Shown here: positions 40,001 to 46,000 of the stretch, in pieces | How the letters are laid out: every line of letters begins with the position of its first letter | Position numbering within the stretch: position 1 is the stretch's first letter | Assembly (NCBI RefSeq): GCF_044324785.1 | Contig: NZ_CP172127.1 | Length of the DNA stretch: 64,000 nt | Source: Escherichia coli | GTDB lineage: Bacteria > Pseudomonadota > Gammaproteobacteria > Enterobacterales > Enterobacteriaceae | Reading direction: 5' to 3' (one strand) | Position numbers: made by a program

Positions 40001-43000
40001 CAGCGTCAGACGGCTATTTTAAGTGCATCCGAGGCGCAGGCATTTAAAAATGCAGAAGCCGCACAACATGCCCAGGCCGCTAAAAAATCTATTTATAAAG
40101 GATTTGGCATGACCTTTAGAATGAGCAGTAAGAACTTTGCTTATCTCAATGATTCATTATGTGCAATTGATGAAGACAATAAAGATGCCACTGTTTATCA
40201 GTCAGGTCTTTATAACGTCATTGTTTATCACCACACGGGAAAAGTCGCCTTAATGAAGGAAGGTCAGTTTGTGGGTTATTTAAAATGAAGGAGCAAAGGA
40301 AAATCCCCCTGACGCATATTATGATTATCGGTGCGTTTATTTTTGCCTTCTTGCAAGTGGTGTTATTAGCCTCCCTGGTTCACGCTGTGAATGTTAACAA
40401 CGAAATCCAGGAAGGCTTATTTCAATCGGGGCGCATAATGGTAGAAAGTTTGCAGCATATTCTTTCGGTGCAAACGGGGATTAACTGATTTTCACCCCGC
40501 CCGATGATGACAGCAGCCGGAGAGATTTTCGATAATCGGGCAGTCGGCGCTGTCATCACCAGGGCAGGCATTCGCCAGCGCCAGTAGCTGGTCGCGCATG
40601 GATTGCAGCTCCTCAATGTGCCGTTCGATCTCCGCTACCTTCTCCAGCGTGCGCCGTTTTACATCGGCGCTGTGACGCTGCGGATCGTTAAACAGATTCA
40701 CCAACTCGCCGCTCTCTTCCAGGTTAAAGCCCACCTGGCGCGCCTGGCGCAGTAAGGTCAGTTCGTTGAGATGCTGCTGCGTGTAAGTACGATAACCGTT
40801 TTCGCTGCGCATCGGCGGCGTCACCAGCCCCTTCTCTTCATAGAAGCGGATTGCTTTGCTGGTCAGGCCGGTAATTTTTGCTACATCGCTAATGTTCATC
40901 GTTCGCGCAACGCCTCCTGTGCTTTGTTAAAGGGTTTCAACAGATAATCCAGCACGCTTTTTTTGCCGGTGCGGATATCGACCGTCGCCACCATGCCGGG
41001 AAATATCGGAAACTGCTGTTTACTTTTGTTTTCCAGATGGTTGCTGAAAGTGCGAATGTACACCCGATAGTAATAAACATCGCGCCGCACTTCATCCTGC
41101 ACGGTGTCTGGTGATATCACCGCCACTTCTCCCGGCAGGCCGCCGTAGATGGAGTAATCGTAGGCAGTTATTTTCACCAGCGATTTTTGCCCCGGGTGGA
41201 TAAACGCCACATCGCGCGGGGAAATTTTTGCCTCAATCAGCAGTTGCTCATCCAGCGGCACGATGGTCATCAGTTTACCACCGGGGGCAATGACGCCGCC
41301 AACCGTGGTGACGTCAATGTCCTGAACAATGCCTCGCACCGGCGCGGTAAAGTTGAGCCTGGTGAGGGAGTCTTCCCGTCCACGAATCACCGAACGCTGG
41401 GTTTCTACTTCCGCATTGGCTTTCGCTAACTCTTCCCGCGCCTGTACGTAGTATTGCGTGCGCACGTCGCTGAGTTTGTTTTCCAGTTCATTGGCCTGGC
41501 GTTGCAGGCGCAGCACTTCAACGCTGCTCGCCGCCCCCTGTTTTACCAGCGGCTGGGTCATCGCCAGTTCGCGGTTGACCAGGCTAATCCCCTGCGTCAG
41601 CCCGGTGGTGGCTTTGTTCAGCCCATCGCGGCGAGTGTTGTACAACGCCGTTTCCGACTCGATAAGTTCGGGGAATTTATTCAGTTCGTCAGGGAAGACC
41701 AGCGGTTTATTACTCACTTCCGCCCGCAGCCGCGCCGAGGTTGCCAGCGCCGCGTACAGCCGCGACATTGCTTCCTGGACGTCGGATTCCGTTTTGGTGC
41801 GGTTAAGCTGCGCCAGCGGCTGGCCCTGTTCAACAATATCGCCAACCTTGACGTCGAGATGATACAGAATTCCGCCTTCCAGCGACTGCACCACCTGTTC
41901 GCGCCCGGAGGGTTCTACCGTGCCGCTGCCGGTGGTGACTTCATCAAGCTGGAAGTACCACGCCCAGCCGAGAAAACAGAGCAGCATCACAGCGGTAACG
42001 CGTACCGCCAGCGCCGAACGCGGCAAGCGGGGTTCAGTCAGGCCACGGTTGTATTGCAGTTGTCCGTTCATGCGGCAGACCCCTTATTCTTCTCCTGCAA
42101 CACCACCCGTCGCGCCGTGGGTTCGCCCTGTTCACGCAAAATGGCCTCTTTCGCGCCATCCATCACAATCCGCCCCTGATCCATCACGATAATGCGGTCC
42201 ACCAGTTGCAGCATTGCCGTGCGGTGAGTGGCGATGATCAGCGTGCGATGTCCAATCCACTGTTTCAGATGTTCGATTAAATGCGCTTCCGCCATTTCAT
42301 CCAGCGAGGCGCTGGGTTCGTCGAGCAGGACGATATTGGGTTGAGAGATAAGTAGCCGTGCCAGCAGCAGCGTTTGCCGCTGACCACCAGAGAGGCCAAA
42401 TCCCCCTTCCTGAATCATGTAGTTGAGGCCGTTTTTCTGCTTCTGCACAAACGGCAGCGCGCCACTTAGCGTTAACGCGCGTTCGATATCTTCATCGCTG
42501 GCTTCCGGCATCCCCATCGTCAGGTTTTCCCGCAGTGAACCGAAAAATAGTCGCCCGGTCTGGCTGAGTAGCCCCATGTCGCGGCGCAGATCCGCCGGAT
42601 CAAGCTGACCGATGCTGATGTTATCCAGCAGCACCTGCCCCTGCTGGGCGATACGCATTCCGGCGAGCATTTGCAGTAGCGTTGATTTACCCGCGCCGTT
42701 GCGCCCAAGAATGGCGATTTTCTCTCCGGCCTGAATGTTGAGTTTGCCAATCGCCACATCGGCAATTTTCTCTTCTTCGTCGTAATAAAAGATAGCGTTG
42801 CTGAACTGATAATTGCCGTGTAGCACCGCTTTATGCACCAGTTTGCCGTGCTCCGGCTTATCCACCGGGCGCTTCATCAGTTCATCAAGGCCATTACGCG
42901 CTACTTTCGCCTGCTGCCAGCGCGAGAGCACGCCGGATATCTGCGACAGCGGCGCGATGGTGCGCGAAGCCAGGATCGTCGTCCCGACCAGCGCGCCGGT

Positions 43001-46000
43001 GGTCATGTCGCCGTTCATTACCATAAAGCAGCCCACCAACAGCACCACCACGTAGACGATGGACTGCACTTCCTGGGTCCAGGTGAGCAGTAGCCCGGTG
43101 AGAAAACGTTGCTTCATGCTGATGGACGAGGCCACGTCGTTAGTGTGATTCCACTGATTCTGAAAACGCTGTTCAGCGCGCAGCAGTTTAATGTCTTCAA
43201 TCGACTGCACGGCTTCCACCAGCGTAGCGTTACGCACCGCCGACTCGCGCATCCCTTCGTTCGCCAGCCGCGCCAGCGGGCGTTGTACCAGCAGGCCGGG
43301 GATCACCAGCAAGGGCAGCGCCAGCAAAACCACCAGCACCAGCCAGCCGCCAATCATCCACAAAATAAAGACAAACAGCAGGAAGAACGGCAGATCCGCC
43401 ACCGCGCCGATAGTGGTGGAAGTAATCAGCTCCCGCACCGATTCCAGTTCGCGGATCTGCGAGATAAACGAGCCGGTGGATTTCGATCGCACGTTATTTT
43501 TCAGCCGTAATGCGTGACCAAAAACGCGATCCGAAATGCGCAGATCCGCCCGCTTGCCGATCACATCGGAAAGGTGCGTGCGCACCATGCGCATACAGAA
43601 CTCAAACAGGATCGCCATCATCACCCCGGCGAACAGCACCCACAGCGTCGGGTACGACTGCGCCGGAACGACGCGGTCGTAAACCTGCATCGAAAAAATC
43701 ATCGCCGCCAGCGCCAGCACGTTCGCCACCAGTGAGGCCAGCATAATATCGCCATAGCGCCGCCAGTCTTTCAGCGACAGATTCCAGAACCAGTTCGCCT
43801 GATACGGGCGAATGTAGTCATCCACCCGCGCGTCAGGGATGGCGCTGAGCGGGCGCAGTAGCGCCAGTTCAACGATTTTATCCTCAACATCCGCGACGTT
43901 AAGCGTAGTTTCCAGCCCTTCGTCACCGCTGAACTGAATGCTGATATTGTCGTGATTGTCACGGCGGGTGATCACGCCAACCTGCTGATTATCAAATACC
44001 GCAATCAGCGGCAGCCGCCAGGGGTTAAGCGAATCAGCGGAAAACTCCACCAGCCGCAGCCCCATTCCCAGTTGCCGCGCCATGTCGGTGAGCAACTCCT
44101 CCCGCTTGCTGTCGCGCTCCCAGTTGACGGTTGCGCGCACATTCTCCTGGGAAAAATCGAGGCGGTAATAACGCGCCACGGCGATCATCGCCTCCAGCCA
44201 GGCTTCCACGGACTGGGCATTTTTTTTCATTATCTACACCACCATCAGCTGATGATTCGCCAGCAAAGTGGCAAGGTCGGTATGCACGCCCGTCAGCGTG
44301 ACCACATTAGTTGTCGCAAAATTGCCGCCCGTGCCGTCGCGGTCAATCTGCACGATGGTGTCGCTGCCGCTCTGGGTGACTTTGACAAAGTCACCGATGT
44401 TTCCGGCCTGCGCATCCAGCGTCGCCACGCCGTTGACGTAGCTGGCTTTGCCGTTGCCGGTATAGCCGCTGCCCTGTAACAGTTCTCGAATATCAATGCG
44501 ATCGGTGTCGGCGGTGCCTTCCCATGTCCCTACCGTAAAGCCATTCACCACATCCGAACCGTTACCCCCGGTGGCGTCGCTGGCGTTGAGCAGTTTATAG
44601 AGCAAGGTATCGTGACCGCCGTTGCCGATGTTGAGCGTGTCGTTGCCGCCGCGTCCTTCCAGTTGGTTATCGCCGCTGCTGCCGGTCAGAGTGTCGTTAA
44701 AATTCGAGCCGGATATCCCTTCGATATTGGTAAATGTCGAGGTGTTAAAACCGGTAGCCTGAGCGGCGGTGCTGCTTAAGTTCGCGGTCACGCCCACCGT
44801 CGAGAGGCGGAAATCAACCACGTCCATGCCGCCGTTCGCCAGCCAGGTTCCGGTGCCGGAGCTGTACACCCAGCCGCCGGAACCGTCGTAAGTGTCGGTG
44901 CCTGCGGTGGCAAAGAAGGTGTCGTTATAGCCCGTACCAACGAACTTGCCGTTGTTGCTCGCGGTGCCCGCTTCAGCGCTGAGATCGTAAGCGTGGGTGG
45001 CATCGGTGGCCTGTAAGCCGCCCCAGCTGGTGTTGACCGTCTGGTCGATATTGCTGGCGGTGGTGCCGGTGGATTTGATCAGCACGGCGTTGTAAGTTTC
45101 TCCGGCATTCAGCCCGTAGAAGTTGACCAGCGCCGAGGTGTCGTTAACCCCCATACCCGACTGCGGGTTGATGATTTGCGTGGCGACCAGCACCCCCGCC
45201 GAGTTGTACAGTTTTACGGTATTGCCGTAATAGACGTTAATGCCGTTAGGATCGGTGATGCGCAGGTGCAGCGAAGTGCCGTAGCTCACCGTGTTGGTGT
45301 TGCGAATAAGATAGACGCTGCCCGACTGTTTGGTCACCAGCACATCCACCGCGCCGTCCCAGTCGTAGTCCATTGCCGCCACGCCGCTGGTGGTACCGCT
45401 CTGGCTGCCGCCGAGGGCCGATTGTGTCCAGTTGCTGGCACCACCAACGTTGGTGTAAAGATACGATTGTCCGGTCTGGGCGATACGGGCGATATCCATC
45501 AGACCGTCATGGTTCCAGTCCACCGCCAGGCTAAACTGGCTGGCGTAGGTGGTTGCCGTTGCGCCCACCGCCACCGGGCTACCCAGTACACCGTTGGTGT
45601 TGAATAACAGCGAGCCGTAGTTAGCTCTTCCCTGGCTGGCGGGCAGGAAGAGATCCATATCGCCGTCGCCATCGAAATCGGCCCAGGTCATGGAAACGCT
45701 GCTGCTCATAGCGCCACTACCCGCCCCGCTCAGGAAGGTATTGGTGGTGTTCTGCCCCCAGACAAACGTGCCATTCCCCTGGTTGATGAGCGAAGATAGC
45801 GTGTAATAGTTGTTCAGGTTGTAGGTGTGCTGAACCAGGTCGATCCTGCCGTCATTATTCAGATCGACGCCGGAACCTTCGTTAAGCGAAAGATACCCCG
45901 TCACCGCCCCGCCCACCGTAGCGCTACCGCCGCTGTTCGACGTGGTGGAGTTACCTACCAGCGTACCTGCGTTGTTCCACAGGAAGGTGTTGGAGTCCGG

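Follow-up and report, generated by a model that had tools for sequence, protein, structure and literature searches.

Two adjacent genes within a 64,000-nucleotide stretch of Escherichia coli DNA (hereafter the window) very probably supply the inner-membrane part of a type I secretion system (T1SS) dedicated to the giant adhesin SiiEA, at the locus known from O157:H7 as O-island 28 (OI-28). As judged from its sequence, the ABC transporter of the pair is a pump of the LapB/LssB type and not of the HlyB type, and its N-terminal C39-like domain is predicted to be catalytically dead, leaving the pump unable to process its substrate. What is gained over the designation of an HlyB-type CLD transporter is a more precise annotation, namely a LapB/LssB-type pump, no substrate processing and a dedicated TolC-like channel expected beyond the window; the discovery value is small, the locus being genetically characterized and the class of dead domain known. 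The features discussed below are the following.

40492..40899, minus strand: cueR, a flanking core gene outside the secretion machine (NF007590, 308.6 bits)
40896..42071, minus strand: HlyD-family T1SS periplasmic adaptor (MFP), 391 aa (TIGR01843)
42068..44230, minus strand: type I secretion ABC permease/ATPase, LssB/LapB type, 720 aa (TIGR03375)
42116..42805, minus strand: nucleotide-binding domain of the ABC protein (Pfam ABC_tran, residues 497-640)
42911..43753, minus strand: transmembrane domain of the ABC protein, about residues 160-440 (Pfam ABC_membrane, residues 162-423)
43841..44230, minus strand: C39-like domain of the LapB/LssB/3b79 type, predicted dead, ABC protein residues 1 to about 130
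44234..64000, minus strand: giant BapA-related adhesin SiiEA, the substrate, as an open reading frame running off the window end
44246..44554, minus strand: C-terminal type I secretion target domain of SiiEA, an uncleaved signal (TIGR03661)
44606..44710, minus strand: RTX calcium-binding nonapeptide repeats of SiiEA (Pfam HemolysinCabind)

A T1SS ABC transporter together with an HlyD-family MFP had been proposed for 40896-44230 in a preliminary description of this DNA, and those coordinates proved exact. The ABC protein, which begins MKKNAQSVEAWLEAMIAVARYY (ORF 42068..44230, minus strand), scores 836 bits against the NCBIfam profile TIGR03375 (cut-off 693.1), with profile positions 2-692 of 696 matched. 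A motif scan located Walker A (GRNGAGKS, residues 509-516) and the signature (LSGGQ, 613-617), as well as Walker B (IVLLDE, 633-638) and the H-loop (IIATHR, 665-670); the full set of ATPase motifs is intact. At the DNA level this region matches, with 97.7% identity, one annotated as ‘type I secretion system permease/ATPase’ in E. coli SCU-102, the closest complete E. coli genome; the O157:H7 orthologue of the ABC protein is z0634 (‘hlyB28’). The adaptor, orthologous to z0635 (‘hlyD28’), reaches 327.7 bits against TIGR01843 (type_I_hlyD; cut-off 208.65). A hydrophobic stretch seen in its translation near residues ~25-40, VTAVMLLCFLGWAWYF, fits a single N-terminal membrane helix. Only about 20 cytoplasmic residues precede this helix, fewer than in HlyD, and the substrate-triggered recruitment of the channel may therefore differ.

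The presumed substrate is encoded directly upstream of the pump. Within the window the adhesin gene is one uninterrupted open reading frame of at least 6,564 codons; the window portion starts at about residue 335 of the SCU-102 protein in alignment, and some 310 N-terminal residues lie beyond the window end. The matching region of SCU-102 is annotated ‘siiEA: BapA-related adhesin SiiEA’. At the C-terminal end, TIGR03661 (T1SS_VCA0849) matches residues 295-397 of the last 400 aa with 36.7 bits (cut-off 17.6), and Pfam HemolysinCabind matches residues 443-477 of the last 600 aa (E=9.5e-5). The SCU-102 orthologue carries a BapA prefix-like N-domain (72 bits, cut-off 35), and from synteny we infer a similar, retention-module-like N-terminus on the off-window part of the adhesin studied here. 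In the literature SiiEA was found only in a gene-content table without functional data (PMC3256949), which supplies the name SiiEA and records for UMN026 the annotation ‘adhesin for cattle intestine colonization’.

All of these genes lie on the minus strand in the order adhesin, ABC protein, adaptor and cueR. Three nucleotides separate the adhesin stop from the ABC start, the ABC and adaptor genes share a 4-nt ATGA overlap, and the cueR ATG overlaps the adaptor stop codon in another 4-nt ATGA. Such a gene order, with junctions of 3-4 nt, fits an operon. Promoter and terminator scanning of 40200-44500 returned no more sites than shuffled sequence and gave no usable internal call. With junctions as tight as these, no TolC gene can fit in the interval from the adhesin to cueR, just as the preliminary description had stated. 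Of the two sources that it had offered for the outer-membrane component, chromosomal TolC or a gene off the window and upstream of the adhesin, the latter is borne out in SCU-102: some 100 bp upstream of siiEA stands a TolC-family gene (TIGR01844, 415.6 bits), and the other side of the syntenic region holds core K-12-type genes only. The O157:H7 counterpart of this TolC-family gene is z0608/tolC28 (PMC12758282). From synteny with SCU-102, at 97.7% identity, we infer past the window end about 930 nt more of siiEA, then, about 1 kb out, a TolC-family channel gene of about 1.36 kb on the minus strand, and then ybaT.

The first membrane helix of the ABC protein comes after a segment of some 150-160 residues (Pfam ABC_membrane begins at residue 162), in keeping with the roughly 150 first reported. 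Taken singly, this segment is poorly recognized: the Pfam C39 match falls below significance (E=0.018), and phmmer against the PDB with the N-domain alone yields marginal matches, the best to the PCAT1 peptidase domain (E=0.038). Since single-sequence searches were insufficient, a family profile was required. A homologue search seeded with the N-terminal 161 aa brought up little besides short, near-identical E. coli fragments and was replaced by a search of a representative library; the resulting profile, built from 64 sequences, was searched against PDB domains. Its best match is 3b79 (6e-36), followed by the HlyB C39-like domain 3zua (1e-16) and by the active C39 peptidases 6mpz, 7n87 and 3k8u (4e-10 to 1e-8). 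An AF2 model of the N-domain (pLDDT 88.8, pTM 0.80) agrees. Foldseek with this model again ranks 3b79 first (2.4e-8), at 17% sequence identity to the N-domain, and then HlyB and PCAT1; the top matches are 3b79, 7sgr, 7n87 and 3zua, and 3b79, HlyB, PCAT1, LahT and ComA all have probability 1.00, with TM values of ~0.62-0.69 for the active enzymes PCAT1, ComA and LahT. The profile and the model thus both point to the first ~130 residues as a genuine domain of the C39 papain-like fold, as had been suspected.

Alignment to active C39 and C39-like domains indicates that the catalytic apparatus has been replaced throughout. Ala10 stands in place of the catalytic Cys, aligned to the catalytic position of PCAT1 and to Y9 of HlyB; Gln83/Val84 replace the catalytic His and Phe100 the catalytic Asp, and the oxyanion Gln of active C39 domains aligns to Asn4. 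Because the Cys, His and Asp positions are replaced, the N-domain would be unable to act as a peptidase, which upholds the original reading of an inactive domain that lacks the Cys motif. Among 113 diverse relatives (representatives clustered at 50% identity), none has Cys at the catalytic column, and a sporadic His occurs in only 7. A Cys at family column 14, present in 43 of the 113, was considered as a shifted catalytic Cys and rejected: PCAT1 has a second Cys four residues past its catalytic Cys (‘ECGAACL’), conserved Gly23/Ser27 columns fix the register, and the window protein has Ala14. Nor can translation begin further upstream: two codons before the ATG at 44230 stands an in-frame TAG, leaving no N-terminal extension that could hide a Cys. 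Neither an intact Cys/His pair in the domain nor a double-glycine leader in SiiEA, inspected at the N-terminus of the SCU-102 orthologue, was found.

The subclass of this dead domain is where the preliminary description has to be amended. Its view of a C39-like domain from a transporter of RTX-type substrates was sound as regards an uncleaved RTX substrate with a C-terminal signal; the HlyB-type subclass that it had in view did not stand, and the LapB/LssB class takes its place. In its strict form, the HlyB interpretation would have the N-domain contact the RTX part of its substrate by the HlyB surface and the conserved Trp/His pair. Much about the protein invites this comparison: the HlyB structures 7sgr and 8dck align with the full-length ABC protein (residues 10-700), the family profile finds the HlyB domain, and the HlyB domain (3zua, 7sgr, 8dck) has in common with the N-domain its fold, its position in the transporter, a replaced catalytic Cys and an uncleaved substrate with RTX repeats and a C-terminal signal. 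In HlyB, however, His83 stacks on Trp77, whereas the N-domain has Val at both positions (Val78 for Trp77, Val84 for His83), and Trp occurs at the Trp77 column in 0/113 representatives. The HlyB subfamily profile TIGR01846 gives 388 bits on the ABC protein, far under its cut-off of 725.55, and Smith et al. (bioRxiv 10.1101/198937) place LapB-like domains on a branch apart from CLDs. We therefore regard a strict HlyB-type domain as improbable.

In the absence of the Trp77/His83 pair the N-domain is assigned to the LapB/LssB class. Smith et al. (10.1101/198937) described the transporter subgroup for LapA-like adhesins, in which LapB-like N-domains without Cys and Trp form a distinct group of adhesin transporters, LssB and PA1876 among them. 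Dead C39-like domains of this class are already described, and a structure has been solved. Like members of this class, the window pump exceeds the TIGR03375 cut-off and has an N-domain with neither the C39 Cys nor the CLD Trp, and its presumed substrate is a giant adhesin of repeats that carries a C-terminal T1SS signal and, as seen in SCU-102, a BapA/LapA-style N-terminal module. Two features set it apart. First, Smith et al. (10.1101/198937) defined ‘LapB-like’ by linkage to the LapG protease and the LapD c-di-GMP receptor, a trait that is not universal, PA1876 lacking it, and unlike LapB/LssB systems with these genes, neither lapG nor lapD was found in the window or within ~20 kb either side in SCU-102; LapA-style regulated release is accordingly unsupported. 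The SCU-102 adhesin does contain a ‘TAAG’ motif (residues 96-101), a likely release site if LapG and LapD homologues were encoded elsewhere in the genome and otherwise in keeping with permanent anchoring or a vestigial motif. Second, Trp11 directly follows the Cys-equivalent position in the window protein and in its nine nearest 50%-identity representatives, whereas the bulk of the family has a ‘DPLL’ motif at this site.

The locus itself is already known, as OI-28 of O157:H7 or the siiEA locus, and is genetically characterized. OI-28 and the window have in common the chromosomal site between ybaT and cueR and the gene order, and DNA identity to O157:H7 across the ABC-adaptor-cueR region is 95.4% (95-97.7% with SCU-102 included); the locus also occurs in other E. 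coli such as UMN026. In O157:H7 the T1SS set comprises z0608 (tolC28), z0609/z0615 (adhesin), z0634 (hlyB28) and z0635 (hlyD28). OI-28 was studied experimentally in 2025 (PMC12758282), and deleting tolC28, hlyB28, hlyD28 or the adhesin ORFs singly lowered both adherence of O157:H7 and colonization of mice (PMC12758282). These phenotypes speak against the notion of a decaying remnant, in which the N-domain would be functionless and the system out of use. Such decay might be suspected from the ~82% of complete E. coli genomes in which the locus is deleted, with only ~98 bp of the adaptor gene left, and from the annotation of the EDL933 adhesin as two ORFs (PMC12758282). In the window, however, the adhesin is a single open reading frame, all three genes are uninterrupted and the ATPase motifs are preserved; the N-domain is also predicted to fold confidently, and Pro74 and Trp147 are kept in distant relatives. 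We consider decay very improbable. Finally, despite the C39 fold and the weak Pfam Peptidase_C39 match, an active PCAT that cuts a double-glycine leader off a small bacteriocin-like substrate is effectively refuted by catalytic columns without Cys, His or Asp, by the in-frame stop that rules out a longer N-terminus, by a TIGR01193 (active C39, PCAT) score of 255 bits where the cut-off is 524, and by an adjacent substrate that exceeds 6,500 aa, has its signal at the C-terminus and lacks such a leader.

For the LapB/LssB-type pump, analogy with HlyB and LapB suggests the following route. A dimer of the ABC protein and an oligomer of the adaptor would engage the dedicated TolC-like channel, and the unfolded adhesin would be threaded C-terminus first, without cleavage, its RTX and Ig-like repeats then folding by extracellular Ca2+. 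The dead C39-like domain would serve as a cytoplasmic substrate-docking or regulatory module and not as a protease; by the same analogy it may have a docking or chaperone role, although the HlyB binding residues are not common to it; in HlyB the corresponding domain is required for export. The folded N-terminal module of the adhesin may stall in the outer-membrane channel, holding the adhesin on the cell surface.

A bolder extension of this route can be drawn from Trp11 and from the cueR junction. The enterobacterial sub-branch of LapB/LssB-type N-domains with Trp11 beside the former Cys might be a functionally distinct module, might use a recognition surface for the adhesin that has no relation to the HlyB one, and perhaps contributes to a stalled ‘two-step’ secretion by which the adhesin stays anchored. 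As the 4-nt overlap joins cueR to the 3' end of the operon, transcription of the adhesin system, reportedly Ca2+-activated through RstA, could run on into the copper regulator. We judge this extension, with its third kind of C39-derived module and its transcriptional read-through from the adhesin to cueR, unlikely.

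The secretion genes of the window and the adjoining cueR are arranged as follows:

44234 to beyond 64000, minus strand: giant adhesin ORF, at least 6,564 codons in the window, running off its end
42068-44230, minus strand: ABC protein ORF, 720 aa
40896-42071, minus strand: HlyD-family adaptor ORF, 391 aa
40492-40899, minus strand: cueR

The adhesin and ABC genes are separated by 3 nt, and 4-nt ATGA overlaps join the ABC gene to the adaptor gene and the adaptor gene to cueR, so that the four genes are packed as a single unit. An in-frame TAG two codons 5' of the ABC ATG at 44230 excludes a longer N-terminus, and the coordinates and ABC N-terminal residues quoted in the preliminary description prove exact. 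The cueR start codon and the adaptor stop codon share the ATGA at 40896-40899, no terminator-like site lies between these two genes on the minus strand, and transcripts started in the secretion operon could extend into the gene of this copper regulator.

Family models confirm the pairing of a T1SS ABC transporter with a HlyD-family MFP. The ABC protein falls within TIGR03375, the LssB-type type I secretion permease/ATPase family (836 bits; curated NCBIfam cut-off 693), and scores well below the cut-offs for the HlyB subfamily (TIGR01846, 388 bits; cut-off 726), the PrtD subfamily (TIGR01842, 308 bits; cut-off 510) and the bacteriocin peptidase transporters (TIGR01193, 255 bits; cut-off 524). 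The 391-aa protein belongs to the HlyD family of type I secretion adaptors (TIGR01843, 328 bits; NCBIfam cut-off 209). Pfam places the transmembrane domain of the ABC protein at residues 162-423 and its ATPase at 497-640, and a motif scan finds the Walker A, signature, Walker B and H-loop motifs all intact.

Taken as a single sequence, the N-domain (the first ~130 residues of the ABC protein) is marginally C39-like, with E=0.018 to Pfam Peptidase_C39 and a best phmmer match in the PDB of E=0.038. Given these marginal matches, diverse relatives were gathered for a family profile: 112 N-domains were extracted with an iterated HMM from a 50%-identity representative library, and a 64-sequence alignment, A1, was used for profile search and AlphaFold2 modeling. 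The A1 profile matches PDB 3b79 from Vibrio parahaemolyticus, namely the 'N-terminal peptidase C39 like domain of the toxin secretion ATP-binding protein' (E 6e-36), the HlyB C39-like domain 3zua (E 1e-16), and the active C39 peptidase domains 6mpz (LahT), 7n87 (PCAT1) and 3k8u (ComA) (E 4e-10 to 1e-8). AlphaFold2 yields a high-confidence model (mean pLDDT 88.8, pTM 0.80) whose alpha/beta core spans residues 1-127. Foldseek ranks 3b79 first in the PDB (E=2.4e-8), followed by HlyB, PCAT1, 3zua, LahT and ComA, with a probability of 1.00 for every one of these matches. Profile, model and ranking together establish the C39 fold.

The catalytic residues are replaced. The catalytic-Cys position of PCAT1 (motif 'E-C-G-A-A-C-L') aligns with Ala10, the active-C39 His with Gln83, and the Asp of the C39 'D-P' motif with Phe100; the active site of the N-domain is thus dead, and the central proposal of an inactive C39-like domain is borne out. 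In the profile alignment the Ala10 column faces HlyB Tyr9, with HlyB Leu11, two residues on, at profile column 11. None of 113 representatives carries Cys at the catalytic column (Pro in 43, Ser in 15, Ala in 14, others in the rest), and His is sporadic, occurring in only 7 of the 113. The Cys that many relatives have at column 14 corresponds to the second Cys of PCAT1, which is not catalytic; our query has Ala there.

The subclass requires revision: the domain stands as a dead C39-like domain, of the LapB/LssB type rather than the HlyB type. Trp77-His83 stacking is a likely hallmark of HlyB-type C39-like domains (PMC8277102); in contrast, the N-domain here has Val at both positions (HlyB His83 aligns with Val84), and Trp is absent from the HlyB Trp77 column in all 113 representatives. 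Transporters of LapA-like adhesins, LssB and PA1876 among them, form a distinct subgroup (Smith et al., 10.1101/198937), to which sequence comparison assigns the ABC protein. The ABC protein has a Trp directly after the former catalytic-Cys position ('xWLxA'), as do the nine representatives closest to it at 50% identity (window 44200-44230, ABC residues 1-11; relatives P0035-P0047); most of the LssB/LapB family has 'DPLL' at this place. The Trp looks like a sub-branch signature.

In its last 400 residues the adhesin carries the C-terminal target domain for type I secretion modelled by TIGR03661 (36.7 bits; cut-off 17.6). FG-GAP repeats occur in its last 600, along with a block of RTX nonapeptides (Pfam HemolysinCabind, E=9.5e-5). 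Its N-terminus lies off-window. The closest complete genome, E. coli SCU-102 (97.7% identity over 40400-44400), encodes an orthologue annotated as 'BapA-related adhesin SiiEA' with a BapA prefix-like domain at its N-terminus and no double-glycine leader; synteny suggests the same N-terminal module here. The combination that the preliminary description named as refuting, an intact Cys/His pair with a double-glycine leader, was not found. At aa 96-101 of SCU-102 SiiEA (region L002, 12557-13996), 'DTAAGG' fits the TAAG dialanine motif that the LapG protease cuts in LapA-like adhesins; no lapG or lapD gene lies within about 20 kb of the locus. The adhesin is built from numerous near-identical Ig-like repeats, each ~100 aa long, and its gene (44234-64000) has strongly negative AT skew and a G+C of ~0.60-0.62, against ~0.50-0.55 in flanking core genes. 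The EDL933 annotation divides the gene between two ORFs (z0609, z0615); the part of it that lies in this window reads through without a break.

The 3-4-nt junctions leave no room for a further gene between the adhesin gene and cueR, in agreement with the reported lack of a TolC-like gene there. Of the two options proposed for the outer-membrane component, an off-window gene upstream of the adhesin or chromosomal TolC, synteny favors the first: in SCU-102 a TolC-family gene (TIGR01844, 415.6 bits; cut-off 225) directly follows ybaT and lies ~100 bp upstream of the adhesin gene. Since the window's adhesin starts at ~residue 335 of SCU-102 SiiEA, a dedicated TolC-like gene should start ~1 kb past position 64000.

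On the model of HlyB/HlyD and LapB/LapC/LapE, export of the adhesin would proceed C-terminus first and without cleavage, and the protein would fold on Ca2+ outside the cell; its folded N-terminal module may plug the channel, yielding an anchored adhesin. The N-domain of the ABC protein would act in the cytoplasm, in docking or regulation; this is the weakest step of the mechanism because the HlyB binding residues are absent.

Both the locus and the N-domain class are already known. The gcl gene of the window shows 99% identity to that of several E. coli strains, in keeping with an E. coli origin. At least 80% of region 40400-44400 is present in 959 of 5,426 complete E. coli genomes, O157:H7 among them (95.4% identity), and the locus is O-island 28 (OI-28). 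A 2025 study names its genes tolC28, rtxA28/rtxB28, hlyB28 and hlyD28, and reports that deleting any one of them reduces both adherence to Caco-2 cells and colonisation of mice, that complementation restores the phenotype for the three transport genes, and that RstA binds upstream of tolC28 and switches the island on in response to Ca2+ (PMC12758282); it makes no mention of a C39-like domain.

In E. coli genomes without the locus, such as that of the K-12-like strain 6FA, a remnant of the HlyD-family gene, its final ~98 bp, survives next to cueR on the upstream side (window 40896-40994, cueR start 40899; 6FA region L003, 2905-3002). This remnant has lost 1 bp from an A-run, abuts ybaT and carries the annotation of a partial pseudogene. 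Because this stub is retained, the whole tolC-siiEA-ABC-adaptor locus appears ancestral and deleted in ~82% of complete E. coli genomes; the stub probably holds the cueR promoter. Between ybbJ and cueR, which adjoin in 6FA, the window carries three extra genes:

within 37267-40288, minus strand: hypothetical protein, 120 aa
within 37267-40288: YadA-like trimeric-autotransporter-type protein, 600 aa
within 37267-40288: putative lipoprotein, 140 aa

The YadA-like protein contains a ~114-aa internal tandem duplication; in SCU-102 the annotated length of its orthologue is 431 aa.
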